Positions 7,501 to 62,630 are shown, counted from the first letter of the whole stretch. The stretch is DNA of 64,000 bases, filler included, from Reclinomonas americana ATCC 50394 (GCA_048213135.1; 8 parts of 4 records of this genome joined end to end with filler, not necessarily neighbours in it); one strand, 5' to 3'. Numbers and translations: made by a program. Notes: generated by a model not told the origin, from the sequence alone.

Positions 7501-9591
7501 GGCGCGCCTGATCGCGTTCCATCTCCGCGCGCGTCTTCTCCAGCTCCACCTCGCCCGACTCCTGTCGGAGCACACGCAGTCGCTCCTGCAGCTGCGCAAC
7601 GATCGCGTCCTGTTCGCGTGCCTGATCGCGCTGCATCTTGTTCGTCATGTCCTCCGTGGCCAGCGCCGTTATTCTCTTTTGCGCTGCGTCGAGCTCGCCA
7701 CGCAGCAACTGCACCTCGTCGTCCAGCAGCTCGCTCTTGCGCTTCCACTGTGTGCGTACGCGACAATCGCTGGGTGAGCGCACACCTCTCACGAACACAA
7801 GAAGACGTGAACCGAACCTTGGAGCTCTCAATGTCGAGCCTCTGCGTCCGCTCGGTCAACTCGGCCGTGTGCTGCCGCTCAGACTGCAGCTCCAGCGAGA
7901 TGCGAGTGTAGCGCTCCTCCAGCGACTTGTGCTCCTCTTGCGATGTCTCCAGCACACGCTCCATGCGACGGTTGGCTCGCATCAGGCTCTCGATTTCGCC
8001 CTCGGCCGTCGCCGCCTTGCCCTCCTGCTCCCTAAGCTGGCGCGACAAATGTCGAATCTGCTCCAGACGCTCTGCGACAAAAAAAAAACAACTGCAGTGA
8101 GTGGACGGCGAAAAAATAAAACGACTGCCGCCGACAACGTACCATCGCCGGATGTCGACGTGATCTGAATCTCCTTCTCGGCCTCCGCCAACTGCGTGCG
8201 ACAGTGCTTGAGCTGGTGCTGCAAGTCGTCGCGCTCGTCTTCCAGTCGTCGAATGATGTCGCGCAATTCCCGTTGCGTCGACTGCACCCACCACGAAGCG
8301 CAATGTGAGGCGCACAGAGCAGAAAAGACAAATGCTTCTTCTTGCATGTGTGTGCGGCACTCACCACTTGTGACAGGGCCGTCTCCAGCTGCGTGCGCAC
8401 CTCAATCATCTCCACATTGCGCGCGTGCAACTCGGACTGACTCTCGGCCAGACGCCGATGCAGCTCCTCCACTCGCGCCACCTCGCTGGTGGTCGACGAG
8501 ATGCTGCTGTGCACCGACGACGACGACGAATGTGACTGTATGACATGCGTGGTTGCCGCCGCCGACATGGGACGTGGCGGTGGTCCGCGTGGCGACGGCG
8601 GTCCGCTGTCGCTGCTGTCGTGCACATCGCCGCCAGTCACACGGGCGCCCGACAGCGCCGTCTTGAGGGCCTTGAGTTCGTCACGCAGAATCTGCGTGCG
8701 TCGCTCCAGTGCAGTCACTGTGCCCGTCAGTTGCTGTGCGACAAAGGAGTGAGGATGCAGCGCGAAAGAAAAAGACAGAAACCTCCAAGAAATACCTCGT
8801 TTTCCTCCTCGAGCTGCGTCACTCGCCGGGCGTCGCGCTCCAGTCGTGATCGTTCCTGCATCACGTTGATGAGTCCCACTCACTCACTCACTCACACAAA
8901 AGCTCGCTCCCTCACGCAACTTCGTCGAGTGTCGACACTTGCGAGTGCAAGTACTGAATCTGCTCATTCAGATGCTCCACCATGACCTGGTTGGCGGCAT
9001 CGAGGAAGTCGCCATGCGCACCGGTGACCGGCGCCGTGCCATTGACTTCCAATCGCGCGCCAAGCCGACCAATCTCCTGCTCACGCGAGCGCAGTTTGTC
9101 TTGCAGCACCGACACCCGTTCGGCAAACGCGCGGTTCTCGCCCTCGGCCTTGTGCAGACGCCGATTCAGATCGGTGATGCGCTCGTCGGCCAAGTCCAGC
9201 AACTCACGCGCATACGGCTCCGCCTGCGCCGCACGTGGAAGGTTCTCACGAGACACCGCTGCGCAATCGCTTCACTCAGTCCACGCTTTGCATGAGAGAG
9301 ACAACGCTGGCGACGCAACGAGCAGCAGGCGCTGTCATCTGAATGGTCTGCGTGCGCCCGAGCACCGCAGTGGCCGCCGACACATCCGATCCACTAAACA
9401 CCTGCGCCTTGCGCAACGCCTCATCCAGTCGCTGTCGCAGCTTATCGACCTCCTGCGCAGCTGCCCGCCACTTGTGCGTCGCATGCGCGTTCAAGAAGCG
9501 CAGCTCCTTCATGTCAGCCTCGGCATGGTGTGCACTCTCCCGCGCCACTCGCTCAGCCTCCTTGGCACGCTCCTCCGCCTGCGACACCTCG
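4571..9591 (-). CDS. CEP135: Centriolar coiled-coil protein CEP135/BLD10, central and C-terminal exons
   Basis: About 12 exons of continuous heptad-rich sequence (ELLDLADERITDLNRR, KLRSREQEIGRL, NQVMVEHLNEQIQYL, DDVQAMTRENQHVNAEL); the matching N-terminus lies adjacent on a flipped contig. Confidence 0.75.
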
Positions 9592-9755
9592 NNNNNNNNN
9601 NNNNNNNNNNNNNNNNNNNNNNNNNNNNNNNNNNNNNNNNNNNNNNNNNNNNNNNNNNNNNNNNNNNNNNNNNNNNNNNNNNNNNNNNNNGACTAGGATC
9701 GTTTTTTATAATTTGCGCGCGAAAACACAAAAAACAAGAGATTGTGAGAGAAGAG

Positions 9756-10076
9756 ATGACGAGTGAGCGTCGCTTTGCCGAGTTGTGCACGCGACTGCGA
9801 GCGGCTGGGTACACACAGCCACTGGGCATTGAGTCTGCGGCACTGGCACAGCGTCTGTTCGACGATGTGTTGGCGCAGGCTGATGAACTGGGCACACTGC
9901 GAGGCGATCTGGAGAAGCAGCAGCGCTCAGTGTTGCAGCTGCAGGCGCAGGTGAGTCAATAAGACACACACACACACACACACGCAGAGGAGACATGCTC
10001 ACTCTCTGGTGTCACAGCTGGATCCTTTGCGCAAAGAGTTGGCTCGTGTCATTCGCGAGAACAATCAGCTGCACGG
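9756..10076 (+). CDS. CEP135: CEP135/BLD10 N-terminal exons (on an inverted contig)
   Basis: MTSERRFAELCTRLRAAGYTQPLGIESAALAQRLFDDV...|LDPLRKELARVIRENNQLH resembles the conserved CEP135 N-terminus; one GT-AG intron at 9951-10017. Confidence 0.8.
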
Positions 10077-10372
10077 NNNNNNNNNNNNNNNNNNNNNNNN
10101 NNNNNNNNNNNNNNNNNNNNTTAATTAATTAANNNNNNNNNNNNNNNNNNNNNNNNNNNNNNNNNNNNNNNNNNNNGCTCTCTGTCGCTGTCACGGTCTC
10201 TAAAAGCGACGCACGCAGTACAACGAGAACAGAGAGACTGTTGTGTCTGCGTTGTGCGCGTGTGTGAGAGAGTGAGCAACGAAAAGATTACGGACGGACA
10301 GGGTTCGAAATGGCGCCGTCGCGTCGATGTTTTTTGGCGCGAGTTGTCTCCCTTTACCTTCCTCTCTTCTCG

Positions 10373-11712: not shown

Positions 11713-14700
11713 TTACTTGGCAACGGCGCCGGGAAGTGGCGCCGGCCGCTCCAACTCCACCGTCGTCGACAAATCCAAATTGTTGGTGTCGTCGTCGTAG
11801 GTCGTCGCTGGTGAGCCCGGTTCTCGTGTTGCGGAGATGGATTTCAGCTGCGAGTCGCTGTCAGCATTTTTCCTCCACGTGTGACGACGACGAGCGGGGA
11901 GGGCCACTCACCTCCACAGGCAAAACACATTTCGCGTGCTTGCCGAACTCGCGCTCGGCCACCACCTGCCACACCTCCGGTTCTGCGTGCCATCTCTGCC
12001 AACTGCGAGAGTCGAGTGTGAGCAGGTGCGGTGTGGAAACGCAATTGCGTGCAACAGTGTTCACGAAACTATTGCACAACATATGCCGGCAGCACGGCCA
12101 CCGGCACCGTAATGATGAGAATGAGCCAGAAGAGGCCGACTGAGGAGATGTAGTACAGGGTGTGCCGCAGCGCCGTGGCCTCGAACGACAGAAGAATGGA
12201 ATACGGGAACTCCGTCAATACAAAGGAGATCACCCAGAAGGCGGTCACCGAGAACAGAAGAGTGCCGATGAGGAGCATGTTCCAGGAGCTGCGCAGCGGG
12301 GAGTGAACACGGCGTGATGGCGATTGTGCATCGAAAATGGAAACCACTCACCGGAACACGAGACAGAGTCGCAAAAGCACGCTAAACAGCAGGCACGTGA
12401 ACATGAGCACACCCAGTTGGGCCTGGTAGAGATCACGGCCACCGGTCCCGACAGCGCCGCCGAAAAAGGCCAAGGCCCACATGGGCACAAAGTAATTGAC
12501 CTGGAGGAGTGGAGAGCAACAAAAATGAGTACGCGTCACATGTGCTGGGTCGCTGGCAAGCAGACGCACCACACTCTCGTAGATGGAGTCGAGGAACCAA
12601 CCAAACACTCGCCACCATCGGAACTGAGAAAGTGCAACAAGCCGTCAGCACGAGAACTGGACAGAAGGATAAAAGCAGCACGTACCAGCTCGTTGTGCTG
12701 GCCGACCTTGTACAGGTGCGGGTTGTTGAAGGACGCCTCTGGCGACACGTCAATGTCGGCGGCGGCGAGAACGAGCACCGGCAGCGAAGTATACACTGCA
12801 GCGAGAGGGAGAGGATGAATAGTCAAGTCAGTACATCACAACACTTGAATGCCCTCGAGCACACGGANNNNNNNNNNNNNNNNNNNNNNNNNNNNNNNNN
12901 NNNNNNNNNNNTTAATTAATTAANNNNNNNNNNNNNNNNNNNNNNNNNNNNNNNNNNNNNNNNNNNNCGTACCGGCATTGTAGAGACTGGAAAACCATGG
13001 ATCGACAAACACCTGCATTGCGAATGGAGCAGTGAGCAACAAGCATGACAGGCGGCGAATAAGCCGGCGAGATATGCTGACGAACCGAGAGCGAAAACAG
13101 GCTGTTGCAGTTCCACCAGAGTTGCATCAGGCCGAGTACCATGTTCTTGAAGAAGAAGTAGAGGATGAACCGAGTGCAGCGCACATAGTTCACCCGCCCG
13201 TGCCACAGCAGCAGTCGACCGAGATATCGGAACTGAGCAATCGCAAAGTCCGCATTCATCACCGCCTGCCTTCCCTCCTGGCCCGAGATGCCAACACCCA
13301 CTGCGTCGAAATAGAAACAGTGGGGTCAGTCGATGTGCAGTTGGNNNNNNNNNNNNNNNNNNNNNNNNNNNNNNNNNNNNNNNNNNNNNNNNNNNNNNNN
13401 NNNNNNNNNNNNNNNNNNNNNNNNNNNNNNNNNNNNNNNNNNNNNNNNNNNNNNNNNNNNNNNNNNNNNNNNNNNNNNNNNNNNNNNNNNNNNNNNNNNN
13501 NNNNNNNNNNNNNNNNNNNNNNNNNNNNNNNNNNNNNNNNNNNNNNNNNNNNNNNNNNNNNNNNNNNNNNNNNNNNNNNNNNNNNNNNNNNNNNNNNNNN
13601 NNNNNNNNNNNNNNNNNNNNNNNNNNNNNNNNNNNNNNNNNNNNNNNNNNNNNNNNNNNNNNNNNNNNNNNNNNNNNNNNNNNNNNNNNNNNNNNNNNNN
13701 NNNNNNNNNNNNNNNNNNNNNNNNNNNNNNNNNNNNNNNNNNNNNNNNNNNNNNNNNNNNNNNNNNNNNNNNNNNNNNNNNNNNNNNNNNNNNNNNNNNN
13801 NNNNNNNNNNNNNNNNNNNNNNNNNNNNNNNNNNNNNNNNNNNNNNNNNNNNNNNNNTCATTACTAAGAGCACGCAAGGCAGACCTCGTGCAGTGCGGAT
13901 CATCGGCACGTCATTCGCACCGTCACCAATGGCTGTTGTGTGCGCTAATGAGTCGATGGTGTACATGACTCTCTTCCGTCTCTCGCCCTCACTTACCAAG
14001 GGTGATGCGGTCGCGCTTCTTCTCGTGCATCGGTGCTGCGTGCTTGTCGCCTTTGCTGCCGCTGCTGCTGCTGTAATGGTGCGCACGTGGCGAAGTGAGC
14101 TCGGGTGGTGGCTGTCCGCGCGCCTCCGGCGGATTGTTCACAATGTTGACAATGTCGGCTTTTTGTCCAGGCGACACACGACAGCACACCACCGACGTGG
14201 AGGCCAGCACTGCGACAGCGTTACACGAGCTTGAGTGAGAATCAGAAAATAGTTGTGTGATTGCAGTGCCGACGCAACTGAGTTCCCGGAAAGCATCACG
14301 AAGCGGCGGCTGAAGTGCGTGGGTGATGGTTCCACCGTCCACAATGACACCATACGGTACACCGGCCTGTGTGTTGCGAACACGTGAGCGAAGCACACCA
14401 GGGAACGTGGGCGTCATAAAGGTGCGCAACATCACGCCACAGGCGAGCCTTCTCCAGCTCCTGCTGCAGCTGCTGCTCGACGTGCACCTGGCAAATGTCA
14501 ATGTCGGTGGGTCGCACCGGAATGGCACTGGAGGACGGTGCGCGTCCGAGTCCTGGCGGCAAATGGGCGGCCGAGTCCGAGGTCTGTAGCTGACGTAATG
14601 ACGCCCGCCGATCGAGTTCCTGCTGCACATGCCGCAGCTCCGGAGACTCCATTTGCAGCTTGCATAGATTCATGTCGGTGCCCAGCAGCGAGCACGCATA

Positions 14701-17700
14701 CGCAATGTTGAGTGCCGTGTCCCACTTGTCGCTACACGCGGCGGTCATTACTCTCATTGAGGTAGGCGACGAAACACACACACAATCGAAACTCACCCCG
14801 TCAGCATCCACACACGAATATCGGCGCGGCGCAGCAGAGTAATGGTTTCGGCCACACTACGAATCACGGTCAGTCACACTGCATGCGATAGCACGCGAGG
14901 ACGCAGCAAATGATGCACACACCCTTCTTGCAACTTGTCCTCAATGCCAGTGACACCCACTAGAGTCAGGTTCTGCTCGATTTCGTCGGCCATGGCCGCC
15001 ACACGCTGTTGCCTATTGGTAGTGTGTGTCGCTGCCTCGTGGAAGCGCACCAGCCACTCGTCGTACTCGCTGCGTGGCAGAATTCGCATGGCAAACGCCA
15101 GCGTTCGCAGACCCTCTTGCGCATACAACTGCAGCGTCGACAGTCAGCAAATCGAGACGCGTGAAACGCCAAGGACAACAATGACACGCACGTCGGCTTG
15201 CGCTTGTGATTCGGTGAGCAGCTGACTGTCCATGCAACGAGGAAAGATGACGCTGTCGGCGCCCTTGATGTAGAGAACAACCTCGCCTGCATCACGCACA
15301 CACACATACACACTTCAGTCACTGTGGGGGATGGCATGCATGAGCATTGCAGTTGTCGGCACCTGTTCGCGGATGCTGGATAATGACAGACTGCCGCTTG
15401 CGATCCGAGTCGAATTCGAACGAGTGCAGCAGCGGGATGCGCATGCTCTCCGTGCCATGGCTCACGAGCTTGAACTCGTCGGTGGCGTGCTGTGATGCAG
15501 TGAGGAGCAAGGAAAAAAGGACAAGAGGTGGTTGGTGACGGCGCAGACCGTCAGCGTCCAGCCGAATTGCTTGGCAGCAGCCACGAGCGCCAGTTCGTCG
15601 GGCGACGCGGCCTTGTATTCGAATTCTGTTTCCCAAAGTGTGAGGAGAACGGAGCTGCAACAGGGAAAGGGAGGCGAGTCAAGCAGACCTTCGGGATTCT
15701 CATCGTCACGACCGACCAGCACATCGTTGCAGATTGCCAGCATGAGAAGGAACTCGCCAATCATTTCGCGCTCCGGTAGACTCTGCCATCGGTCGCCAAG
15801 TAATCTGCCAACGTCATAATAAGTACAAGCAAACACTCATCTGCGCAGCACGACCGCATCGAACCTCTCGTCGCGAAAGTTGAATCCGCGCTGCCAAAGA
15901 ATCACAAGTCAGATGCATCACTGGGGCGGTGGCGGTCAGCACACCAAAGCAGACGCACAGTGATTACGACGCCCTCCGGCACGGGTGGATCGGGAGGCAC
16001 CACGCCGCCCTGTCGCCTGATGCTAGACTTGCTGATTTCGGTGAGGCCAACACCAAACGGTACGCCGGCAATAATGCATTTCATAAAGTCCATTTGATTC
16101 TCCGTCAACGTGCCCGTCTTGTCGCTAAACACGTACTCCACCTGGTGGGCACAAGGACTACATCGTGAACAACGGCGATAACACCACGCATCTCCATTCG
16201 GCGACTCACCTGCCCGATTTCTTCCGACAGTGACGAGTCATTGCACTGTGCGGGCGTATCCGAGGCCTTGTGATACATCTGTGTGCATTGGTTGGCGAGT
16301 GCGCGAATTGACATGCATCATGCCGCACGCAGCGGGACGAACCTCATGGTCCCAGCCAATGAGCCACGCATACACGATTCGCACAATCTCTAACGACACC
16401 GACAGCGTGATGGAGATGAGGTAGGCATTGCCGACCAAGGCGGTGAAGAAGCTGGTGACGCCATCGTCAAAGCCGGCCGACGACTGCGCCAAATAGTAGG
16501 CATCCCTGGTTCGATTCTGTGCGCAAACCCCCCGATCAGCGGCGAGTTGTCCGCCGTCCACCAAAAAGAAATGTGCAGCAACGCACCTGCAGCACGCATG
16601 CCGCAATGGCCGACGCGGTACAGTACGCCAAGAGTACTGTAAACACGCAGGCAAACACCAGATTCATGCGGTACTCAACACGCCCGAGCTTCTTGCGATA
16701 CCGCTTGCTGTGGTGGCACGACAAATGAGTCATCAACAAGAAACGTAAGAGATAGAGAGGAGACGCCACTTTGCATCCTGCATGACGATCTTGGTCTCGC
16801 GACCCGTGTAGACCGTGGAGGCAATGATCCAATCCGTGTTGCGCAGTGTGCTTCCACGCAGCAGCAAGTTGGTGATGCTCAGAGGCAACGAGCCCACTGT
16901 CGCTCCCGAGTGCAGGATGTTGGAGCGCGAATGTTTCCGCTTCAAAGGCAGCTCAACGTGGTATGTGGCATCGAAGCGCATCATGTCTCGATTCGGCGGC
17001 AGTGCCTCCACAAATCCATCAAACTGCAACAACTGTGGTGTGGCACACACAGCAAAAAAGAAACAGGGAATCAATCTCTCCCGTCCCTCATCGCGCACCC
17101 TGCACGCTCACCACCACCGCACCTCAGCCGGCTCCAGTTCACGAGTGGCACGAAAGGCGTCCTTGACCTTCAAGTTGGTCTCCCCATCGAGACTCGCCGT
17201 GTCCACAAACGCCACCGTGCCCGCACTGGAACTCAACAGCACCACATCGGCAGGAATATGATCATTGTTCTTGATACGCAGCGTGTCGCCTATCCGCACA
17301 TCGCTCCACCGTGAGGGCCTCCACTCGCCGTGATGCAACACCTCCACCACGCGATTGTTGATCTGCCGATCCGAGCGATGCCGTTTCTGCGCACAACTGT
17401 GCGTGAGTTGCAGGGCCGCACATGCACGCGAAAAAGTGGACGAGTGAGTGAGGCGAAACAATGTCTTCCATGCCGTCCTTGATGGCCGTGACCAGGATCA
17501 GCAGGGCTGTCGACGATCGACTGACAGTGAGTCGCCAACTGCGATACAGTTGAGAATGCACATAAACACACCGAGTGTCGCCACATAGGCCACTGGACTG
17601 ACGGGCGAGATCGCCGGGATGCTGCGTGGCACACGAGGGAGCATTGAGACCACTTCACACAGAGTGATAGAGAGACAAGGAAGTGGCACACTGACTGACC

Positions 17701-18333: not shown

Positions 18334-21300
18334 TCAACGCTTCGCTGACTTCTTGCCGCCCGGTGCCGGTCGACCATTCGCCGTCTTCGATTTCTTCAGT
18401 GGCGGAGCGCCGGCCGAAGGCTTGCTCGCCGCCTTCTTGCCCTCCTCACGCGGTCGCTTTTGTCCGGCGTTCTTCTTGCCCTTCGGTGCCGCCGCCTTCT
18501 TCACCGGTTTGCTCTCCTCCTCTTCGTCCTCCTCTTCTGCCTCGTCGTCGGCATCCGCATCCTCCACCACCTTGGCCTCGTCGTCGGCCTCGTCATCGTC
18601 GTCATCGTCGGCGTCCATGGAGACGTCCGCTGATGCCGACGCGGCGTCGGGCACCACAGTCACCGTGGGTACGAGAATACCGGTGGCCTCCATGGCGGTC
18701 AGCAGGTCGGTGGCAAGCCGCCGAATCGCCTTGTTGTGGTGCTCGTTCTCGGCGAGGGTGGCCAGCGCCACGGCCACGCCGCCATTGACCATGATCTGGT
18801 TGCTCAGCTGCTCGCTGAAGCGCTGCGACACCCACTTGTGCAGCTCGCGCGCCGTGCGGATCACCGAGCGCAATCGGTCGACCTTCTTCGACGACACCTC
18901 CGACAGCATCTTGCTAATGGCACCGGCCACCGCCTCCGCACGCTCGGCAGTCGCCGGCTCCACAGCAGCGTCGGTTGGTGTCGACCTCAGCAGTGCCGAG
19001 AACACGTTGAGCATGCCAAAGTGGATGTACTCGAAGGGGCACGAGATGGACGAGGCGGCCATGTCGCCGGCCAACTCCCAGCCGAGTTCGGGGAAGCGTG
19101 AGCTGAGCGTGACATACAATTCGGGCGTCACCGACGAGTGTCGCTTCGTCACCATTACTTGCAGGCTGCGTCGCAGCGTACTCAACACCGAGTTGCGCAC
19201 CGCTGGTACTGCCAACTGCGAGGTGCGACATGGCCAGGTGAGTGGGGGGGGAGGTGCGTGATGTTATCACAGGACAAGAAACGCAACTTGGTCCAGATGT
19301 GACATGGATCGAATGATAAACATCAACACATCGTAGTACGCCGTCACCGTCTCCTTGGCAGGGTGGGCGGCGCTCAGCAGCAGGCCAGTAATCTTATCAA
19401 ACAGCTTCTCCAAGCTCTGCGCACGCAACACTCTCCGCATGAGTACATCACAATGAGCCAACAAGATTCATCGCCAGACACACACCTGCATCGCCTCCTT
19501 CACCGCCTGCGGATCAGCCACCAACGCCGGATCCAGCCTGCTCATGCGCGCCACCTTCTTCGACAGCCACTGAGCCAACTTGATGCGGATTTCGGCTTCC
19601 ACGAAGGTATCCGGCTCCTCGCCCTCGGCGGCACGCTTCTTCTGTTGCGGATTCGTGTGCAACATCGACACCACTTGCGGCAAAATGCGAGTAATGACCA
19701 AGTGGCAAGCTCCACGCCTAGCCACCAGCAGCTCCAACAACTCAAACGTCTTGTGCTTGAACTGCATGGCCAGCTGCCGTGCATCAGCTGCATTCACACG
19801 AATCGAGTGAGTGAGACTCTGCGTCCGACAGCGAGCGATCATGCAAGACACCAACCCTTGGGCTTGTCCTGCTGCTGCAGCTCCTTGCGCATCATCTTGA
19901 AAGCCTCGGCCAACTGAGCGTCCATGCGGAACATGTCCTCATCGTTCGCCCCATCGCTGCTCTCGCTGTCGTCGTCGTCCTCGTCGTCCTTCTTGTCCTC
20001 CTCCTCTTCCTCGGCAGCATCCGCCTATGGACGCCACGGTCAGCGGCACAACTTGGAAGGCTCAAAACACCCTAGTTATTCCCGTACCTCATCCTCGTCT
20101 TCTTCCTCCTCGTCATCGNNNNNNNNNNNNNNNNNNNNNNNNNNNNNNNNNNNNNNNNNNNNNNNNNNNNNNNNNNNNNNNNNNNNNNNNNNNNNNNNNN
20201 NNNNNNNNNNNNNNNNNNNNNNNNNNNNNNNNNNNNNNNNNNNNNNNNNNNNNNNNNNNNNNNNNNNNNNNNNNNNNNNNNNNNNNNNNNNNNNNNNNNN
20301 NNNNNNNNNNNNNNNNNNNNNNNNNNNNNNNNNNNNNNNNNNNNNNNNNNNNNNNNNNNNNNNNNNNNNNNNNNNNNNNNNNNNNNNNNNNNNNNNNNNN
20401 NNNNNNNNNNNNNNNNNNNNNNNNNNNNNNNNNNNNNNNNNNNNNNNNNNNNNNNNNNNNNNNNNNNNNNNNNNNNNNNNNNNNNNNNNNNNNNNNNNNN
20501 NNNNNNNNNNNNNNNNNNNNNNNNNNNNNNNNNTCGTCATCGTCGTCATCCTCGTCATCATCATCATCGTCGTCGTCGTCGTCGTCGTCGTCGCCTTCCA
20601 CGTCGCCATTCATTGCCTCCTCGTCGTCCTCGCCCTCCATCTCATCGTCGTCCTCTTCCTCGGCGGCAGCATTGCGTGCCAGCACATCCATGAGCAGCTG
20701 GGCGCACTCGGCGTCAATGTGCTGAATCGACAGCCGGAAGTTCTACACGGGNNNNNNNNNNNNNNNNNNNNNNNNNNNNNNNNNNNNNNNNNNNNNNNNN
20801 NNNNNNNNNNNNNNNNNNNNNNNNNNNNNNNNNNNNNNNNNNNNNNNNNNNNNNNNNNNNNNNNNNNNNNNNNNNNNNNNNNNNNNNNNNNNNNNNNNNN
20901 NNNNNNNNNNNNNNNNNNNNNNNNNNNNNNNNNNNNNNNNNNNNNNNNNNNNNNNNNNNNNNNNNNNNNNNNNNNNNNNNNNNNNNNNNNNNNNNNNNNN
21001 NNNNNNNNNNNNNNNNNNNNNNNNNNNNNNNNNNNNNNNNNNNNNNNNNNNNNNNNNNNNNNNNNNNNNNNNNNNNNNNNNNNNNNNNNNNNNNNNNNNN
21101 NNNNNNNNNNNNNNNNNNNNNNNNNNNNNNNNNNNNNNNNNNNNNNNNNNNNNNNNNNNNNNNNNNNNNNNNNNNNNNNNNNNNNNNNNNNNNNNNNNNN
21201 NNNNNNNNNNNNNNNTATGACTCGTGTGTGAGTCGACGGCATGCAGACAGTGTGACACTGGGCGCACACATCAGGAGTAGTGCACGCACCGCCTTGACTG

Positions 21301-23845
21301 CATCACGCAGGTAGGCCGACGACTTGACGAGGATGCCCAACAGCAAGTCGACGAGGAACGGCATGAATCGCACCGAGATTTCTGCGCATCACACGTGAGA
21401 ACCCTCGACAACGACCGTTCCACTCATTCGAGACACCACTACTCACCTCCCTCCTCGTCCTCCTCTTCCTCCTCTGCCACCTTCCTCGACTTCTTCTTCT
21501 TCTTGCCCTTCTGTGCATCCTTGCTTCGCACCGCCTGGCACATGTCCACACAAAACATGGACAATTCCTGCGCCACACATCACGTTGCGTGAGACACGCA
21601 TCACCCGCAAGCGCACTCCTCTTCCCTTCTCCCTCGCCACTCACCTCGATTTCGTTCAGGACCTCGTGCCCGCGAACAAACGTGAAAATGAGGAGTTGCG
21701 TGGCCAGCAGCCGCAGCGACGACACGGCCGCATCCAGTGGCACATTCTGTCAAATCACACTTAGTGAGCGGCAAGTGTAACGCAATGGAGTTCGACGCGC
21801 GCAGGTACGAAACGGCAGGCAACACAGTGGCCAGCTTGCTGTTTTTCCGAGGAATACCATCCAGTGCCGCCAGAGCACGTCGCAATGACTGTTGTGCCGT
21901 CAACACCTCTGCATTGTCCTTGTGCTCCCACTGCGGACGCAAACTTGCATCCTCCTCCAACTGCGCACCACAAAATGAGCAACCAGCACTAGAACACAGT
22001 CGACACTTTTGTACACCGAACCACAAAACGCAACTTCGCGAACAACATCCACAACCTCCGACAACCAGCTCTGCATCGTCAACTCGGACACACCCGGCGA
22101 CGTACCACCCATCTCCTCATCGTCGTCTGCGTGACGCAAAATGCAGTGAGATAATGACTCTCCGTGCACACCCCGCCCTTGCATCACACACACCTCCGCT
22201 CTTGTCTGCGCCTCCTGAGCGGTTGCTGCCACCCCGCGTGTGCAACGCCGGGTTGTGCACCAAGTCCGACACCAACGACAGCAGCTTGTTGGCACACTGC
22301 TCCCGCACCGCCGGTGACACCTCGCGAGACTCCGACGCGGCCGACGATGACGATCCACCGGCAGCGTCGGCTGCGGCGGACACCTTGCCGACCACTCGGC
22401 GCATAAACAGACCATGCCGTGCCAGCTCCCGCAACACACTCCGCACCGTGGCCGGATCCTTTCGGATCCGCGGGCTCTTCATCACTCTTCCCAACTGCTC
22501 CAATACCCACATCCACTGTGCGTTGCGCTCGCCTTCGTAGCTCGACCGACAGCTGCACACACACACGCACACACAAATAATTGTCAAACACCGCGCGGCT
22601 GAAGGACACTTGAACGGGCGTACACAACTTTTCCAACTTCTCCAACAGCGACTCCACAAACTCGTGAATTCCAGTTTCTGGTGGCTCCAGATCCGAGGCG
22701 AAAATGGATGAAAACAGCTTGTTCTGACGCAGCGTCTGGAAGCGCACTGTGCCGTGGTTAATGAAGCCCTCCAGTGTGGCCAGGCGCAGCCACGCATTGC
22801 CGCGGCAGTGCACGGCCAGTTGTTCCAGCTGTATATGCAACATAGTCACACAAGGGTCAGCACACACCTCTCCCCTTTCTCCCCTCCCCACCCCTTGCGC
22901 ACCGTGTACTTGGCGGACTCGTGCAATTGCGTCTCAACGTGGCGTGCGTCATAGGCCAATGCTTCCACGAATCGCTTCGTGAAGATGAGATCGAACACGG
23001 TGCGGTTGGCCGATCGCGATAGCCGGTTCAGCACCTCGTTGAAGAGCAGGTAGGCGAGGAACTTGCGCGGATGTGTCGATTGCAGCAGTGCCTCGTCGAC
23101 CACCGTCGACCACAGCGTGGCCAGCGCGTCCTCCTTCACATCATCCACATTCGGCACAATCTCATCCAAAATCACCGTCCACACCGTGTGCAGCTTGGGA
23201 TGCGCTGCCACCGACTCCTTCAGCGGCTCACCCAGCTGCGGAATGTTGAGAGGGTGCAGCGTGGACCGGCCACCGCGCAACTCTGGCACTCCCAGCTCCT
23301 CCACCGGCAACTTCTTCTCCAGCGCCAGCACCAGACCCAGTGTGTCGGGTGTGTGCGCTCGCAGTGCGCCAGAGATCAACGGCTTGATGCGCGGCAGCAC
23401 CGCCTGGCGCAGCACGTCGGGTGACAACTGGCATGATGATTCATATTGTGAGTTTTTTTTTCTGGTCACAGAGAAATCACGCCACTCTCGCAACCGCACC
23501 TGTTCCACCAGCAGGCACACTCCGCGGTACACCAGCTGGCACAGATACGAGCGCTTCTCGGCCAGATCCAGCAGCACGGCCAGCACACGCGACAGCAGCG
23601 CCGCATCGGGACCACCCTCCGAACCCGCACCATGCAAGCGTTCCGATCGCAGCAACGCAAACATGGCAAACGCCTGCCCAAACATGTGATCACGCTCCTC
23701 CAGCCCACTCATGTTCGACTTGCACTCCAGCGTCTTGGCCGCGAAGCGCAAAAAGTTGTCAATGGTGACTTGCGGGAAGCGATGCAGCAGCTGCCACGTC
23801 ATTCCGTGAGAATCACTCCTCGCATGCGGAGAACCTCCCACCCTC

Positions 23846-23876: not shown

Positions 23877-24247
23877 CGCACACACACACACCTCGCTGAG
23901 TGTGGCTGCGTAGCCGACACGAGCGGCCTGTCGATTGGAGGCCAGTCCCGACACCAATCGCTTGAACGAGTAGAACAAGTCGGTGCAGCAGACCTGCTCC
24001 AGTCGAGCAGCCGACGACATGTTCCGCACATTGCTGCCCTGCTCGAATCTGCAAGGAGTAAAAAAAGGGAGGGTCAGCGCCATGTGCACATGCACATGCA
24101 CAGACCGACACCTGCACAAAAAATAGCACCGCAAGCACGCAACGAACGCTGCAGCTGCTCCAGCTCATCAATGAGTGCCTTGGCCGCACGCGAACGCACG
24201 CCGGCGTCGAAACTCGCCAAGTCGCCAAATCTCTCGAGTACACCCAT
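18334..24247 (-). CDS. MYBBP1A: MYBBP1A / Pol5 (DNA polymerase phi family) nucleolar protein
   Basis: YSFKRLVSGLASNRQAARVGYAATL, EERDHMFGQAF, HPKLHTVW, LWSTVVDEALL..STHPRKFLA, DDEDMFRMDAQLA-like acidic region, basic C-tail; two internal gaps. Confidence 0.88.
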
Positions 24248-24946: not shown

Positions 24947-27665
24947 CGAGCGAGGAGAACCTGTACCCGATTGCGGTGCTCATCGACGAGCTGAAGAATG
25001 ATGATGTGAATCTGCGACTCAACAGCATTGAGCGTCTGCGCACTATCAGTGTCGCACTGGGACCTGATCGCACTCGCGATGAGCTCATTCCCTTCCTCAC
25101 TGGTGCGTCTCCGTCCCCCACTGGCCACTCCTGCGGACGTTCTTTTATTTATAGTGATGTGTAGATATGATTGATGATGAGGAGGATGAGGTGTTGTTGG
25201 CGCTGGCGGAGCAGCTGAATGAGCGCTTTGTGGAGCTGGTTGGCGGCAGTGCACATGCGCAGACGCTGTTGGTGCCGCTGGAGACGCTGTGTGATGCGGA
25301 GGAGCCGTCTGTGCGCGACAAGGTCTTTGTGTGCGCGACGAGGGGGTGTTGTTGATTGTGTGCATGTGTGCTCATGCAAAGAGTTGTCTGCGCAGGCCAC
25401 CACCTCGTTGCGCTCGATCAGCTCGCGTCTGTCGAGCGACGTTGTGCAGGAGTTGTACTTGCCGCTGGTGCAGCGCATGAGTCGTCGCGATTGGGTGTCG
25501 TCACGTGCTGCGGCCACGGCGCTCTTCCAGGCGCTGTACCCCAATGTCGAAGCTCGTGTCAAGGCCGAGCTGCGAGAGTTTTGTCGCCTCTCCCTCCCTC
25601 TCTCTTTCCGTCCCNNNNNNNNNNNNNNNNNNNNNNNNNNNNNNNNNNNNNNNNNNNNTTAATTAATTAANNNNNNNNNNNNNNNNNNNNNNNNNNNNNN
25701 NNNNNNNNNNNNNNGCCTGGGTGCCATTATTAACACAAGCGTTGCGCCTATTATTGCACGTGCAGAACCTACAACCAGTTGTGCCACGATCCGTCGCCGC
25801 TGGTGCGCCGCGCCGCGTGCACCAACCTCGGTGCGTTTGCCGAGTGCGTGGAGAAGGAGGCGATCAAGACCGAGATTCTGCCGATGTTTGTGGCGCTGGC
25901 ACAAGACGATCAGGATTCTGTGCGTCTGCTCACCGTCGAGGCGGCGACCTCGCTCGGCAAGCAGCTCAACCAGGTTCGTGTCCAGTGAAAAATAGCTCGG
26001 GTTGTGCATTCGCCCGTGCTCACGTGTGCCACAGGATGAGTGCGTGACGTACTTGCTACCGACGCTGCGCAGCTCGACACAAGACCGCAGCTGGCGCGTG
26101 CGTTACATGGTGGCGAACAAGTTTGATCAGGTTTGTCTTTTCGTGTATTTTCGAGGCACACGGATATTTGTGGCCGGCTCTTGTAATATTTACCCCGCGC
26201 AACAGGTGTGCAAGATTATGGGTGCCCGCGTGACGCGGACAGAGCTGGTGAATGCGTTTGTGCGCCTGTGCGGCGATACGGAGGCCGAAGTGCGCACGGC
26301 CGCAGCACATCAGGTTGGTATCATTCATTTTCTTGTATGTTCTTCTCGATACCGACCCCTTGAGTACAGGTCAGCAAGGTGGCCAGCATGTTGACACCGG
26401 AGCAGATTGTCGAGTTCCTCGACTCTGTAAAAGCTCTCACACAGGATCCGTCGCAGCACGTGCGATGTTGCGTGCATGGTGGATGCATGTTTGCCCGTCT
26501 GCACCGCCTGACTTGTTTCCTTCGTTTTTTTGCTGCCTGTAGCTGCACTTGCGTCGGATATCATGGGCCTCGCACCGCTGCTGGGACGGGAAAAGACACT
26601 GGAGCTGTTGCTGCCGCTGTACCTGCGTCTGCTGAAGGACGAGTTTTACGAGGTCAGGCTCAATGTGATTGCCAAGTTGGAGGTTTGTTTGCGAGAAGCG
26701 AAGAGAGAGAGGCCTTGCTTCGTACCGAATGTGTGCGGTGACTGACTGGAAAAAATTGGTGCGCTACACAGGATGTGAACAAGGTCATTGGAGTGGAGCT
26801 GCTGTCGCAGTCTCTGTTGCCGTCCATTGTAGAGCTTTCGCAAGACCGCCAATGGCGAGTGCGCTTGGCGATCATTGATTACATTCCACTGCTGTCCACC
26901 GAGTTGGTGCGTGCTCGACGTAGCCACTGCCTTCTTCTGCTCTGCGAGCCACTCACTTTGCGATTGCGTTGCAGGGTGTCCGCTTCTTTGATGACGAATT
27001 GAGCACGCTGTGCATGGCGTGGCTCGGCGACCCGGTCTACTCGGTCCGTGAGGCCACGACCGCCAATCTGCGAAAGGTTCGCCAACTCTCTCTCTCTTTC
27101 TCATTCTCTGCATGTGTGTGCTGGCTTCATGGATGGACTCACATTGTCATATTCTGCGTGTGACAGGTGGTGGAGACATTCGGTCCCGAGTGGGCGCAGC
27201 ACTCGCTGCTGCCAAAGTTGGCCACGCTGGTCGACAACCGCAACTACCTGCACCGTTGCGTATACTGTGCTGCCATTTTCAGGGGAGTGCCTCACGTACT
27301 GATCCCGTTCACCTCCTCGGCAGGCATGACTCTTCTCTTCACAATTTCGACGCTGGCAAGCGTGATGGGCAGCGAGGGCATTGTGTCCTCGCTGTTGCCG
27401 CTGACTCTGCGTCTGGCCGGCGACACGGTGCCAAATGTGCGCTTCAACGTGGCCAAGACGTTCCAGACGCTGATTCCGCTGGTCGAGGGTCCGGTGGTGC
27501 AGACTCAAGTTGCGCCCCACCCAGTGTTGCCTCCCCGCAGCTGAAAAAATGTGCACTGACACCCGATTTTTTGTCGCACAGATCAAGCCGTGCTTGTTGA
27601 CTCTGAACGAAGACTCGGACGTCGACGTCAAGTTCTATGCCTCACAGTCGCTCAACCTGTGCTAA
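24947..27665 (+). CDS. PPP2R1A: PP2A 65 kDa scaffold (A) subunit, HEAT repeats; first exon probably in upstream gap
   Basis: [87 protein letters not shown]; 12 introns placed. Confidence 0.97.
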
Positions 27666-43411: not shown

Positions 43412-44796
43412 CTATTCCAATTCTACCACAAACGAGTTACTGTAGGGGTACTCGATCTGCGTGCACTGGCGTCCTGGTTTCAGACGGCCGTGCTGATTAC
43501 TGTGTGCGAGTGAGCGAACAGAAGGGCGAGAGAGAATGCGCGGCTTCTTGCAGACGACGCAACGAAACCACCCTTGTGCCACCGAGAACATTGTCGGCGT
43601 TGTGGTGCGTGTGTCCGTGGACTGCGTGAGGCGAGAGAGAGATGAGTACTCAGTGAAGCAAGGAGAGAGAGATGTTGAACGACTTAAGAGCGACACAAGA
43701 AGTGGTCCCGCATACGCACCCCACACAGCCGGGACACCGAGGCTGCTGTTGGCGGCAAACAGGCGCGACAAATCGGAGCCATACGTGCACTGCTTCTGCA
43801 ATGTCCACTCGTCGTCGTCGTCTGCCGCAGAGAAAGAGGTTGAACACACTGGGAGCGAGAGATGAATACACACAAAAGGAGCACGCACCTGTCATTACTT
43901 GATATGAGGGCAGCGTCGGCGGATGATGCGTGACCACCACCACATCCTTCTCTCCGCGAGCGGCACACTCCTGCAGCTCGTGCTCCAACCACTTGACCGT
44001 TCGCTTGCAGATCTACAGGCCACGAGAGTGAGCGAGAGGCGCCCCTTCACTGCATCCTCTCCGCCAGCAACGACAACGCACTTGGTCAGTGTCAGCCGGA
44101 CGCAGTCTTCGGCGCTCGCCCGTCGTCTCATCGATAACAAACGAGGTGGTATAGTCGCCCTTGGTGACCAGGGCATCCCAGCACTAATGTCGCGGAGAGG
44201 AGACAGCAATGATGAGCGCGCGACAGACTCCGCAGAGGAGCAGGCAGCGCAGAGCAGAGCAGACCGACTCGGGGATCTCGGACCACATGGTGGCGCCCAA
44301 GAAGCGAATGCCATTGACAACAATCGATTCACGCTCCAGCAAATGCAGTGCCGGATGTGAGTCACAGATGGAGCGCGCCGCACAGAGACACTCGTCAAAC
44401 GTCAGCGCGTCGGCGATCTTTGTGTGTGTGAGAGACACCTGCGAGAGAGGCAATCCACACATGTACACACACCTCGACATCTTTCGGGTTCTTGGACTCG
44501 CCATTGCCGAGCACCACAATCACATGCTCAAAGCGTTGCGCCTCACGCAGCAGAATGTCGCTGTACTCTGGACGCGTCACGTGCCCAATGTCACCCGCCA
44601 GCACCTGTGCACCACGCGCAGATGTGAGCGACTGTGTGTCTCTTTCAGTGCTCCTGTGTGTGCACTCAACGAGGATGGGCGCCGAGGGCTTGATCAGCGT
44701 GTCGCGCTCGAGGAACTCGACGGGGTCGACATAGTTGAGGTGCAGGTCGGAGGCCAGTTGGAAGGCTTTGCGTGGAGGGGCCTCGCGCTCACTCAT
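43412..44796 (-). CDS. Calcineurin-like metallophosphoesterase
   Basis: ASDLHL, LAGDIG, VLGNGE, FLGATMWS, VVTHHPP, WVHGHTH, VVSNQHG. Confidence 0.85.
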
Positions 44797-57153: not shown

Positions 57154-60100
57154 NGTCGCCGTCCTCGTCGCCACCCTTGTCGTCTTCGTGATCGCTCTCG
57201 GCGTCCTCCTCCGTCAACAAGCCCATCGCGCGTGCCTCGCGTCGCTTCGCCTCACGCTTCGCCTTCTCCTCCGTCTCGTCAAACTTGAATCCGCGTCCAC
57301 CAAACCCTGCATTGGAAAAGTGTTTCACTGTGCCCTCCTTGCGCTTGCTGAGGAACGCTGCGCACACAACACACGTGTTTCGTTGAGCATCATGCATGCA
57401 TGCAAACAACACACAGCAAACTCACCGTCGGCCATCTTGCGCAACTGCTCCGGCACGGCATTGTTGCTCTGCTCGAGCGCCTTGGCCAAGTCGGGGGCGT
57501 ACCGCTCCTCAGCCGGCGTCATGAAAGTGTACGCAGTGCCGGTGCGTCCGGCACGACCTGTGCGACCGACGCGATGCACATAGTCTTCGTAGTGATTCGG
57601 TGCGTTGTAGTTGATGACCAGCACCAGATCCTTGACGTCCAGGCCGCGCGCGGCCACCGACGTGGCCACCATCAGCGTCTTCTCCTTGGCCTTGAACTGC
57701 GCAATCGTGTACTCACGGTCCACTTGTTCCTGCACGACGAGCGGGGAGGGGAACGACCAGTTGGGCACACCAAATGTGGAGACACACAAGACACAGTGCG
57801 GCGAGGGGAGCGTACCTTGCCACCATGGAGCGAGAGGCAATCGTAACCGGCACGCATGAGGTCGTGGAACAAGGAGTCACACTCTTCTTGTCGATCAACA
57901 AACACCAACACACTGCCGCGCTCGTACCATTCACCGAGCAGCGTGAGCAGCCGCAGGAACTTGGCCTCCTCCTCCATGACCTCCACATACTGCGTTACAC
58001 TCTGCGAGGCCACGCTGCGACCGCCCACCTCGATCTCGATCGGCTTGCGCAGAATGCCGCGGGCCAGCTTCTCGACGGCACGCGGAAACGTGGCCGAGAA
58101 CATCACCGTCTGCCGGTCCGGTCGCACATTCTCCGTGATGCGGGTGATCTGCGGACCGAATCCCAAATCAAACATGCGATCGGCCTCGTCAAGCACAACG
58201 TACGTCACACGAGTCAGGTTCGTCACACCTGTGTTCCACACAAATGACGCGTGAGTGAAGGAGGGTGGGTGGTGTTGGAGGCAGTGGGAGAGAAGGGGAG
58301 AACGCAACGACCGCGGTTGGCACACAGCAAGTCGATCATGCGCCCTGGTGTACACACAATGATCTCGGCACCACGTTTCAGATCGGCAATCTGCTCGGCA
58401 ATGCCGGCGCCGCCGTATACACACACCGTGCGCAGACCGAGGGGGCTCGCAAACTTCTTCGTGTCCGAGTAGATCTGCGTGGCCAGCTCGCGCGTGGGCG
58501 CCATGATGAGTGCAATCGGTCCATCGCCCTCTCGTAGTGGCGGCTGATCCTTGATGTGGCGCAACATCGGCAACACAAACGCCAGCGTCTTGCCAGAGCC
58601 CGTCTTCGCAATGCCAATCACATCGCGCCCCGACATGATGGCCGGAATCGCCTGCTGCTGAATCGCAAACGGCCGCTCAAAGCCCGACTTGTTGATCACG
58701 TCCACACTGGTCGGAGGGAGACAAGGGAATGTGTGAGGAGGAGCGGTGGAAGAAAGAGAGGAGGAGAGGCAAATGAGTGGAAGAGAGGAGAAGAGGCAAG
58801 GAGTAGAAGAGAGAGGAGGAGAGGTAAAGAGTGGAAGAAAGAGGAGGAGAGGCAAGGAGTGGAAAAAGAGGAGGAGAGACAAAAGAGTGGAAGCTAGAGG
58901 AGGAGAGTGGAAGAGAGAGGAGGAGAGGAGGAGAGGCAAAGAGTGAAAGATAGAGGAAAGAGTGGAAGAGGAGGAGAGGTAAAGAGTGGAAGAGAGAGGA
59001 GGACAGGCAAGGAGTGCAGAAAAGAGGAGGACAGGCAAAAGAGCGGAAGAGAGAGGAGGAGAGGCAAAGAGTGAAAGAAAGAGGAGGAGAGGAGGAGAGG
59101 AGGAGAGGCAAAGAGTGAAAGATAGAGGAAAGAGTGGAAGAGGAGGAGAGGCAAAGAGTGAAAGAAAGTGGAGGAGAGGCAAGAGTGGACGAAGGAGGAG
59201 GAGAGGCAAAGAGTGGAAGAGAGAGGAGGAGAGGCAAACAGTGAAAGAAAGAGGAAAGAGTGGAAGAGAGAGGAGGAGAGGCAAAGAGTGGAAGAAAGAG
59301 GAGGAGAGGTAAAAGAGTGGAAGAGGAGGAGAGGTAAAGAGTGGAAGAGAGAGGAGGACAGGCAAGGAGTGGAGAAAAGAGGAGGACAGGCAAAAGAGCG
59401 GAAGAGAGAGGAGGAGAGGCAAAGAGTGGACGAAGGAGGAGAGAGAGGTAAAAGAGTGGAAGAGAGAGGAGGAGAGGCAAGGAGTGGAAGAAAGCAAAAG
59501 AGTGGAAGAAAGTGGAGGAGAGGTAGACGCAACATTTTCGTGGGCAAACCACACTGGTGCCAGGCACGGATCGGGCGCGGGCAACCCTTGCCGCGAATGC
59601 GAACCTTGTCGGCGGCCAGCTGCGCCTTGATCTCCGCGTCTGTCAGGCGTGCCACATCACGCGGCTCGATCCAAAAATTCTTCGTAAACTTCTCGTAGTT
59701 CATCTTGGAGTGGTCGACTGGCTTCAGGTCCTTCTTGTTGCTCTTCTCCGCCTCCGACTCCACCACCGTGCCCATATACTCATCGTCATCGTCGCCACGA
59801 CCGCCACCCGCCATATCATCCTCGTCGTCATCGTCGTCACCATTGGCCGCACCGCCGCCGGTCGACGACGAAGCCGCACCACCGCCGGAGGCACCACCAG
59901 AACCAGAACCAGCACCACTGCTACCACCAGCCACCGGCGCGTCACTGGCCTTGCGCATCGCCTCGAGGAAGCGCTGTCGATACTCATCGCTGTCGCCACC
60001 AGTCCCATTCGCCTCCTGCTCTACTTCGTCGGACTCCTGCTTGATTGGCTGATCGACGTCCATCTTGCCGCTCATAATGTCGTCGAGCGAGATGGCCATG

Positions 60101-60395
60101 GATGCGGCCGGCTTGTTCGATACCAAGCCTCCCAGTCGATCACGCACCAGCTGCGGAGAATGAGTGGTGAGAAGCAGTCGAGGTGAGGGAGAGAGAAACA
60201 GTGAGGAAAACGCACCGAATCGCCACCATCCAGCTGCTGCACGGTGCTCGCCACGTCGACCATGAATGCATCGAGCGGGTCCACCTCAGGCGCCGCCCCA
60301 TTCCCATCGCCGTTGGCAGCGGTTGCACCACTACTGCCGCTGCCGTCGACAGCCATGGCAGAGACAGCGGTGGTTGTGGAAGAGGACGACGCCGC
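57154..60395 (-). CDS. DDX46: DEAD-box helicase DDX46/Prp5, main body
   Basis: [101 protein letters not shown]. Confidence 0.97.
58733..59525. repeat. Polypurine/polypyrimidine minisatellite (about 28 bp, GAGTGGAAGAGAGAGGAGGAGAGGCAAA) filling a DDX46 intron
   Basis: Many degenerate tandem units within intron 58707-59533. Confidence 0.9.
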
Positions 60396-60519
60396 ANNNN
60401 NNNNNNNNNNNNNNNNNNNNNNNNNNNNNNNNNNNNNNNNTTAATTAATTAANNNNNNNNNNNNNNNNNNNNNNNNNNNNNNNNNNNNNNNNNNNNCGTT
60501 GTCCAAGTCATGACATCTC

Positions 60520-60896: not shown

Positions 60897-60937
<41 letters not shown>

Positions 60938-60985
60938 CGCTCTCGGAGCTCCGAACAAGTCGAGAACTGCGATCTTCACCGCATG
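60725..60985 (-). repeat. Dispersed repeat copy with a tandemly duplicated core and (GT)n
   Basis: Two cores (about 60725-60783 and 60801-60845) plus an extension matching 51150-51235; tcttcaccgcat is shared with 52142. Confidence 0.88.
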
Positions 60986-61534
60986 CAGCGCGGAACAGTG
61001 GATTTGACGCACTTGCATAGACGCATATCGTTTTCTGCGATCGTGCACGGCACATCGAATTCGGGAAAAGGCCATGAGCCAGGCAAACGAAGCAAACAAC
61101 AACAACAACTTTACTAACCCAAACCGCAACACAGCTGCATGATGATCACCATCTTGAGTGAGTACCAGAAACTCACGCATCACGGGAAAAGGCGAGAAAA
61201 AGTTGAGATGGCTAATGCTGGCGTTTCTGCACGACAAGCATGAATTTGACGTCGAATTCCACGAAGTAATGCAGAAAGATAGCAAGAAGTGTTGGTGTCA
61301 GAAGGCATAAGGAAAACCAACAAAGCCAGGCAAGTGCAAGTGAGTCCGGGAAGGAGCTGAGTGGTTGTCTTTGTCGACAATGGTCCTGCTGTTGCCCCCT
61401 TTCCGACACACCCTCGCTTCCTTTTTCCCCGCACATTCACCTCTTTTATTCGTCACGCTGTCTGCACTTGTCGAAGACGAAAGTGCGACACGGCACAAGA
61501 GGAGAACGATCGCCGGCTCGTGGGCGTGTGCGGC

Positions 61535-62630
61535 TCAGAGAAGGCCAAAGAAGCCCTCGAGTCCATCACCTGCGTTGTCATTGCATTTAGAGGCGGGCGA
61601 TCACAACGCACACGCCAACACCCGCGGCCACTCACCCAAATCCGACACGGCCACACCCACGTGGTACTCCTTGGCGAGCTCCAGGCGGTCGGCGAGGAAC
61701 TGTGGAGGCGCGGAGAGGAAATAATGAGACACAAAGAAGGATCGCCCCTCGATGCCTCTCTCTCCCCCCCCTCTCCCTCCCTCCCCCCTCTCCCCTTCCC
61801 TCACACACCTGGAACGTGGGGTACGTCATGCGGTGGCGACCATGCATCGACGCCGTCAACGACATGAACACATGCTCGTGGTCCTCCTCGTTCCAGTAAA
61901 TGTTGTGCGGCGACTCCACCTGCTCGGCAAAGTACTTGGCATTCACCTGGCGCATGCGCGCGCCATCCACGTACTCGTATCTGCACACGAGACAGAGATG
62001 AACAATAGACTCGCCCTCTCCTTTCCTTCCACCACCCCCACTCACCCAAAGAACGGCAGACCCAGCAGCAGCTTCTTGGCGAAACGCGTGTCACTGACTT
62101 GGCTGTCCGCGGCCGCCGCGGCATCCGAGGTCGACACATTCACCGTCACACCGGCACCGCGAGTCAACACGCGCAACACGTTGCTCAGCCACTGGTACGG
62201 AGCCAGCGGGCCTCTGCGAAAAAGACAAGTGAGCAGATAGAAAGAGAAAGAGAGAGAGATACCATCAACAAAACTGCAGCGATCCGGCGTACGAGTACGT
62301 GTTCAGCGAGAACATGTCCACGTGCTTGTCGGTCGAGTGCAGCACGTCGGCGAGCTGCGGAACCGCGTCGACGGCATTGGGAATCTGCAGCATAATCAGC
62401 AAAACAATGAAAAGTGGACCCTCTCTCTCTCCCTTGTCTCTCCCAGTACCTTCACGGACCACACCACGGTCAACGACTCGAGCTCCGCGGCCGTGCCATT
62501 GACGGGGCGAATCTCACGGCCACCAATGCGGCCGGTCTTGAGGCCCTCAAAGAATGCCGGGGCGATCTTCGTGATGTCCTCGGTGGTGAAGCCACTCCAG
62601 TCGACCACGAAGCCGTCCACACCGGTGTCA
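61535..62630 (-). CDS. CHID1: Chitinase domain-containing protein 1 (GH18-like), C-terminal half
   Basis: DGFVVD, FSLNTYSY, GPLAPYQW, KKLLLGLPFFGYEY, WNEEDHEHVF, YPTFQFLADRLELAKE..VGVA...LGDGLEGFFGLL*. Confidence 0.8.

Follow-up and report, generated by a model that had tools for sequence, protein, structure and literature searches.

A second class of 5' splice sites, displaced by one base and tied to exons not ending in G, in a 64-kb window of Reclinomonas americana DNA

The window analysed here, a 64-kb stretch of DNA from Reclinomonas americana ATCC 50394 (GCA_048213135.1), holds genes rich in short introns, among them genes for the A subunit of PP2A (PP2A-A), a P4-ATPase, the DDX46/Prp5 helicase, a Sac1-like protein, a DNA pol phi-like protein, an FtsJ-like methyltransferase and an RCC1-repeat protein. 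We describe in this window a second class of 5' splice sites (donors), which follows exons ending in A, C or T and in which the usual donor motif is moved one base into the intron. The G+C content is 44-61% per 4 kb, and 26 runs of N amount to 4,628 N in total. Seven spacers, each made of 44 N, TTAATTAATTAA and 44 N, act as a six-frame-stop linker; given these linkers, the window is a draft pseudomolecule made of concatenated contigs, in which the order and orientation of neighbours are possibly not real. The spacers lie at:

10077-10176: TTAATTAATTAA linker
12868-12967: TTAATTAATTAA linker
25615-25714: TTAATTAATTAA linker
47015-47114: TTAATTAATTAA linker
55459-55558: TTAATTAATTAA linker
60397-60496: TTAATTAATTAA linker
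62830-62929: TTAATTAATTAA linker

Splice junctions were placed by two routes that took no account of the donor beyond its GT. In the first, a dynamic-programming protein-to-genome aligner allowed any GT..AG intron at a flat penalty and ignored donor sequence. The aligned homologues were hand-picked by rank and near-full length (6 of 25 for PP2A-A, 8 of 47 for the P4-ATPase, 8 of the 120 listed for DDX46 and 10 of the 150 listed for Sac1), and the homologue searches gave identities of at most ~73% for DDX46, ~64% for PP2A-A and ~55% for the P4-ATPase. The resulting homology set comprises 43 junctions, each backed by a strict majority of homologues; junctions below a majority, such as 14430 (3/8), were excluded. 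In the second route, a donor-blind Viterbi gene finder used codon usage trained on the window and GT as its sole donor information, and rewarded length, branch motif and YAG with bonuses set by hand. It returned 92 introns; an earlier pass lacking the acceptor and branch terms was discarded as too noisy. A two-component (mixture) donor model was then learned from the donor-blind set and its introns joined with the homology set, a step that dropped 3 finder introns overlapping homology introns and gave a merged catalogue of 119 introns.

The common donor in the window is G/GT-GCGT (the slash marks the exon-intron boundary), in which -1 and +5 are G and +6 is T. After exons ending in A, C or T (H), two thirds of the donors read H/GT-T-GCGT, placing the GCGT element one base further from the cut. 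We defined the displaced class, S, as donors that have T at +3 and G at +6 but lack G at +5, and found that it exists and depends on the base at -1. In the homology set, S donors accounted for 8/13 junctions after non-G as against 0/30 after G (Fisher p 8.9e-6); in the donor-blind finder set the corresponding fractions were 12/35 and 0/57 (Fisher p 2.3e-6), and in the merged catalogue 24/36 and 0/83. The S share of the merged catalogue is thus 24/119 (20%). Of the window's GT sites taken together, just 2-5% show the S pattern, regardless of the preceding base. The other five non-G donors of the homology set were one GTGGCG, three canonical G+5 forms and one GTTGTT, and the non-S donors after non-G in the merged catalogue were 2 GTGGCG, 6 canonical and 4 others. 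The original prediction, which had tied a second donor class to exons not ending in G, is upheld by all three sets of introns. Its estimates also held up well: about 30 shifted against about 7 unshifted donors after non-G is close to our 24 S plus 2 GTGGCG against 10 others, and its estimate of roughly a fifth of introns corresponds to the share found here.

The signal in GTTGCG is one of context and not of total count. The hexamer is hardly enriched overall, with 75 matches in the window against 61.6 expected (at least 75 in 3 of 100 shuffles), and just 6 of these 75 matches follow a G. Where the exon ends in G, the intronic portion of the donor can be very loose (GTCAGT, GTCTGC, GTGCCG, GTCTTT), whereas after non-G it is strict. 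Loose donors after G, each placed by 6-8 homologue alignments, lie at:

17939: loose donor after G
17699: loose donor after G
15688: loose donor after G
15548: loose donor after G
15362: loose donor after G
25323: loose donor after G (6/6 homologues)

The introns with displaced donors, including the two in which the extra base is G, are as follows:

8856..8920, minus strand: intron, A/GTTGCGT; donor-mixture finder only
9259..9319, minus strand: intron, C/GTTGCGT; donor-blind finder
11996..12080, minus strand: intron, T/GTTGTGC; donor-mixture finder only, rival donor 12069 GTTTCG
14210..14278, minus strand: P4-ATPase intron, A/GTTGCGT; 7/8 homologues
14367..14430, minus strand: P4-ATPase intron, T/GTTGCGC; donor-blind finder, 3/8 homologues
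16708..16769, minus strand: P4-ATPase intron, A/GTGGCGT (extra base G, not T); 8/8 homologues and donor-blind finder
17387..17459, minus strand: P4-ATPase intron, T/GTTTCGC; 8/8 homologues
19216..19287, minus strand: intron, A/GTTGCGT; donor-blind finder
21747..21813, minus strand: DNA pol phi-like gene intron, C/GTTTCGT; donor-blind finder
21961..22034, minus strand: intron, A/GTTGCGT; donor-mixture finder only
22553..22628, minus strand: intron, A/GTTGTGT; donor-mixture finder only
24049..24143, minus strand: DNA pol phi-like gene intron, C/GTTGCGT; donor-blind finder
26467..26542, plus strand: PP2A A subunit intron, T/GTTGCGT; 6/6 homologues
27255..27323, plus strand: PP2A A subunit intron, C/GTTGCGT; 6/6 homologues and donor-blind finder
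27509..27581, plus strand: PP2A A subunit intron, A/GTTGCGC; 5/6 homologues
29077..29139, plus strand: FtsJ-like methyltransferase intron, A/GTTGCGC; donor-blind finder, both flanking open reading frames match FtsJ
31951..32021, minus strand: Sac1-like gene intron, A/GTTGCGT; 6/10 homologues and donor-blind finder
34650..34755, plus strand: intron, T/GTTGCGT; donor-mixture finder only
35131..35192, plus strand: intron, A/GTTGCGC; donor-mixture finder only, the donor-blind finder taking an in-frame GT 6 nt upstream
35896..36007, plus strand: RCC1-repeat gene intron, T/GTGGCGC (extra base G); donor-blind finder
36644..36719, plus strand: RCC1-repeat gene intron, C/GTTGCGT; donor-mixture finder only, the donor-blind finder taking an in-frame GT 24 nt upstream
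37020..37086, plus strand: RCC1-repeat gene intron, A/GTTGCGA; donor-blind finder
44605..44670, minus strand: intron, C/GTTGAGT; donor-blind finder
58229..58308, minus strand: DDX46/Prp5 helicase intron, C/GTTGCGT; 8/8 homologues
58707..59533, minus strand: DDX46/Prp5 helicase intron of 827 nt, T/GTTGCGT; 8/8 homologues, with introns of up to 900 nt allowed
62214..62274, minus strand: intron, A/GTTTTGT; donor-blind finder

The 827-nt DDX46 intron (58707-59533, minus strand) is packed with CT-rich repeats and keeps its GTTGCG donor, in a window where the median intron measures ~70 nt. At 33542-33550 (minus strand), tandem donors GTTGTTGCG place a GTTGCG donor 3 nt downstream of, and in frame with, the GTTGTT chosen by homologues, the first GT being favoured in 8 of 10; the pair may represent a one-codon alternative or an alignment tie.

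The original prediction had listed 30 shifted sites, and all of them, 20 GTTGCG and 10 variant forms, are present at their coordinates, with the strands of the GTTGCG sites also matching. As splice donors they fared unevenly. The donor-blind spliced alignment gave a strict homologue majority at nine (26467, 27255, 27509, 14278, 32021, 58308, 59533, 17459 and 16769), and a further seven were chosen by the GT-only finder (9319, 14430, 24143, 29077, 37020, 44670 and 62274). Another four (8920, 34650, 35131 and 36644) emerge solely with the learned donor model, which is circular, and ten appear in none of our models (42368, 42462, 42674, 28709, 43134, 43563, 46471, 47369, 25578 and 12069). Of these ten, 25578 adjoins a gap, 12069 is backed by 2/4 homologues, and at 46471 and 47369 the coding score is negative on either side, though this score discriminates poorly, homology-confirmed sites ranking just within the top 2-11% of random GT sites. 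A Pfam search of 61 open reading frame (ORF) segments around most of the ten returned 0 families. Conversely, five S sites lie outside that list, two chosen by the donor-blind finder (19287 and 21813) and three by the donor model only (22034, 22628 and 12080). The lipase motif GHSLG, named in the original prediction as fixing a junction, had no match in any continuous frame; an intron may split it.

The unsupported GTTGCG sites at 46471 and 47369 (minus strand) have similar upstream sequences, and paralogous ORFs (RWSELQ.QQF...) lie at 48033-48491 and 51514-51834 on the same strand. These similarities point to a tandem gene family, in which untranslated regions may harbour the first introns.

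The S motif looks like the canonical one shifted a base into the intron. Unsupervised expectation-maximization (EM) on the 92 donor-blind introns returned two components, of 71% and 29%, with consensus sequences offset by one position: the larger has G at -1 and T, G, C, G, T at +2..+6, and the smaller has non-G at -1 and T, G, C, G, T at +3..+7. Counts at single positions follow the same offset, with G 48, C 35, G 72 and T 53 at +3 to +6 of the canonical donors (n = 72) and G 21, C 20, G 24 and T 17 at +4 to +7 of the S donors (n = 24). Scored at their free positions against the canonical profile, the 24 S donors gave a log-likelihood ratio of +33 if displaced by one and -126 in place. The spacer base of the displaced class is T in 24 donors and G in 2 (GTGGCG), and GTTGCG itself is the donor in 19/24 S introns. 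The earlier claim that the shifted class carries the same motif with one extra base is thus borne out by both EM and the likelihood comparison.

In other respects, S introns resemble the rest. Median length is 71.5 nt for S and 69 nt for canonical introns; CTSAY lies at most 50 nt from the 3' end in 22/24 S (median 20.5 nt upstream) versus 58/78 canonical introns, and the acceptor is CAG in 23/24 versus 67/78. Removal of eight S introns restores a frame colinear with homologues (5/6 to 8/8; 6/10 at 32021). Judged from these sequence signals, S introns appear to be ordinary major-spliceosome (U2-type) GT-AG introns that share their 3' signals with the others. U12-type donors have the motif [AG]TATCCTT, and a U12-type identity was rejected, ATCC at +3..+6 being found in 0/24 S donors.

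We consider it probable, with moderate confidence, that these are major-spliceosome introns with a second regular donor form that is read in a register displaced by one base; register displacement itself is our best inference. Under this reading U1, and later U6, would pair with the GCGU element one base displaced from the cleavage site, the GU at +1/+2 would still set the cut, and the displaced pairing would be the counterpart of what is called a "shifted" or "bulge +2/+3" register in humans. The preference over H/GTGCGT would be expected to come from a lineage-specific property of the U1 small nuclear ribonucleoprotein or from the hand-over to U6. Of the overall interpretation in the original prediction, the class, its link to -1, the displaced motif and the mammalian comparison all stand; the stability of the duplexes lends no support to the proposal that G+1 substitutes for an absent G-1, and the variant U1 or U6 snRNAs or altered U1C, Luc7 or Prp8 that it put forward would be candidate causes.

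Several observations weigh against displaced pairing. The sample comprises 119 introns from one 64-kb window; junctions are based on homology in four genes and on coding continuity in the rest; and 7/24 S donors owe their place to the donor model alone, which is circular because that model learned from these very data, leaving 17/24 with support free of any donor model. S donors have A at -1 (11/24) and at -2 (10/24), whereas canonical -3 is G/C-rich, so the exon positions do not clearly track the shift. Pairing energetics do not favour the class either. The standard U1 5' end is ACUUACCUG, and standard U6 carries an ACAGAGA box; our duplex energies use this standard (human) 5' end or hypothetical ones. 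The standard end averages -0.9 kcal/mol with S donors versus -7.2 with canonical donors, and the real S site beats its form with the +3 T deleted (H/GTGCG) in just 1/24. With adapted U1 variants (with G at position 5, 5G, and additionally C at position 6, 5G6C) it does so in 3/24 and 2/24, so that in the other 21 or 22 the T-deleted form is at least as good. In these models, duplex stability does not predict the preference for GTTGCG over H/GTGCG.

Where the adapted variants pair G+1, the modelled duplexes mostly take the shifted and not the bulged form. G+6 would pair with C4 in 12/24 donors with the human 5' end and in 20/24 with the 5G or 5G6C variants, which pair +4 C; where G+1 is paired by these variants, it sits opposite C9 in 10 donors and opposite C8 in no more than 2. 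In the U1 variant scan, G at position 5 strengthened both classes (S -4.6, canonical -9.3 kcal/mol), and adding A or G at position 8 to 5G6C gave S -10.2 versus canonical -6.2 or -7.5, position 8 being the single change that makes S the better substrate. A search of the 64-kb window with Rfam found no small nuclear RNA (snRNA) at gathering scores, and E<=1 gave just 7 weak matches to microRNAs and small nucleolar RNAs.

Other readings of the displaced class differ in how much of these data they accommodate. That junctions were misplaced, by our gene models or by the original prediction, gains something from the ten noted sites absent from all models and from the in-frame alternative GTs 3-24 nt away that the donor-blind finder chose at some S sites. 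We regard it as very unlikely, given that homologue alignments uninformed about donors concur on 8 S donors, that a one-base slide would break the frame, that the heptamer holds no other GT, and that at 58308 a donor 3 nt upstream would lose one residue relative to the homologue. Mobile elements of the introner type would yield many introns sharing one uniform donor, and the S donors are unusually uniform, as the prevalence of GTTGCG attests. Yet when all 119 intron bodies, less their first 8 and last 4 nt, were compared with one another by blastn (word 7, E 0.01), 0 of the 132 hits linked two S introns; judged by partners and lengths, these were microsatellite-type matches or overlaps with opposite-strand predictions. 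S introns also sit in old conserved genes (PP2A-A, DDX46, P4-ATPase and Sac1). Because their bodies are unrelated, S introns are not introner copies; the original prediction had named this alternative itself, and we find it the least credible of all.

A dedicated or lineage-adapted snRNA is a more serious contender, if still an unlikely one: either a second U1 fully complementary to GUUGCGU, or a single U1 changed at position 5, 6 or 8, would let S donors pair in an ordinary continuous helix with no tolerated bulge. The effects of 5G on both classes, and of A or G at position 8 on S, speak for it, as does the co-evolution of U1 5' ends and atypical donors in two lineages, Entamoeba (AACAAAC, donor GTTTGTT) and Mastigamoeba (ACGUAC, donor GUGCGC), as given in excerpts of bioRxiv 10.1101/2022.06.08.495308. 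However, the same excerpts describe a standard U1 in Thecamonas and Mamiellales despite a +4 C preference, and a single adapted U1 still makes H/GTGCG more stable than S. Distinctly less probable, in our assessment, is the absence of any register shift, such that exons not ending in G need a stronger or different intron hexamer, through known exon-intron compensation or a protein reading GTTGCG, and the likeness to a displaced GTGCGT is coincidental. Coupling of -1/-2 to +5/+6 is general in fungi, animals and plants in the portion of PMC10599564 drawn on here, and the displaced form has no duplex-energy advantage, both of which fit such compensation. Against coincidence, S positions +4, +5 and +7 and the fixed G+6 match canonical +3..+6 base for base, GTTTCG and GTTGAG mirror the canonical variants GTTCG and GTGAG, and GTGGCG keeps the spacing with a different spacer base. 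More tentatively than displaced pairing itself, we propose a two-register splice code as a rule, G/GTGCGT versus H/GTTGCGT, with the second form read by a distinct component. Candidates for this component would be a second U1 (for example, one with another base at position 8) or a hand-over from U1 to U6 that gauges G-to-G spacing and not duplex stability; such a component would explain why the thermodynamically better H/GTGCGT is the minority.

Registers of this kind have precedents in human cells, where, in the part of PMC4856993 used here, shifted and +2/+3-bulged registers are validated. In mammalian shifted sites, the consensus lies one base further from the cut GU (Roca and Krainer 2009, via PMC4856993), and the accepted view is that U1 pairing moves by one position but the GU is still where cleavage occurs (PMC4856993). 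Those sites are rare and atypical, whereas here the displaced form covers 24/119 introns and is the majority form after non-G; the mammalian element is AAGU as opposed to GCGU here, and the standard U1 duplex model gives the GCGU form no advantage. In bulge +2/+3 sites, as here, +2/+3 is UU and the usual +3..+6 element comes after it, and GTGGCG fits a +3 bulge. In humans, bulge +2/+3 accounts for 68 and bulge +3 for 51 of 201,541 sites, ~0.03% each (Roca et al. 2012, in PMC4856993 Table 3), compared with 20% here, and here the form never follows G at -1 (0/83). The mammalian comparison drawn in the original prediction is therefore apt, with a large contrast in abundance. The coupling described in PMC10599564, in the portion cited, resembles our observation in that loss of G-1 goes with a stricter intron part, but there base preferences change at fixed positions, whereas here the whole element moves by one base.

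Atypical donors are known from several lineages, including GUGCGC in Mastigamoeba, GYGCGY in Mamiellales, +4 C in Thecamonas and GTTTGTT in Entamoeba (excerpts of bioRxiv 10.1101/2022.06.08.495308). The canonical G/GTGCGT of this window is of the same +4-pyrimidine type, and those excerpts describe no second displaced class. No account of a displaced donor class of such abundance turned up in the literature, in a search whose scope did not extend to subscription journals and supplements with possible donor logos; queries with the hexamer GTTGCG itself returned primers and unrelated RNAs. We rate the non-canonical register as an already known, rare mode, and its abundance, a fifth of introns, as what is new here.

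Some further features of the window stand apart from the donor classes. The C-terminal KH part of DDX46/Prp5 lies at 55787-56104 on the plus strand and the remainder at 57155-60356 on the minus strand, with an N gap (56574-57154) between them; the opposite strand of the KH part is probably a contig orientation error. A long intron-less ORF with DUF285 repeats (53716-55458, plus strand; Pfam E 1.2e-130, 4 stretches) reaches the contig linker. An ORF of 343 residues from a public assembly (P0194) is 80% identical to the Sac1 exon at 32152-32616 (minus strand), so the genome of a relative exists in public data, and it continues into a region that is intron in the Sac1-like gene of this window. 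Scanning metagenomes with the Sac1 exon yielded no confirmed match, and a scan with P0194 gave 80 loci and no close relative, the best being 54% identical over most of the query and a few short segments reaching 95%.

What is a rare exception in mammals thus appears in this window as a standing rule for a fifth of introns, switched cleanly by the final base of the exon. Why GTTGCG should be preferred to H/GTGCG is a puzzle for current duplex-stability models. A single donor weight matrix would mis-score S sites, gene finders would overlook the pattern, and since the donor-blind finder took in-frame GTs 3-24 nt off, gene models here and in relatives would carry small errors. The displaced class could moreover offer a natural test system for how the choice of cleavage site comes apart from snRNA pairing, and for whether snRNAs and donor classes evolve together.

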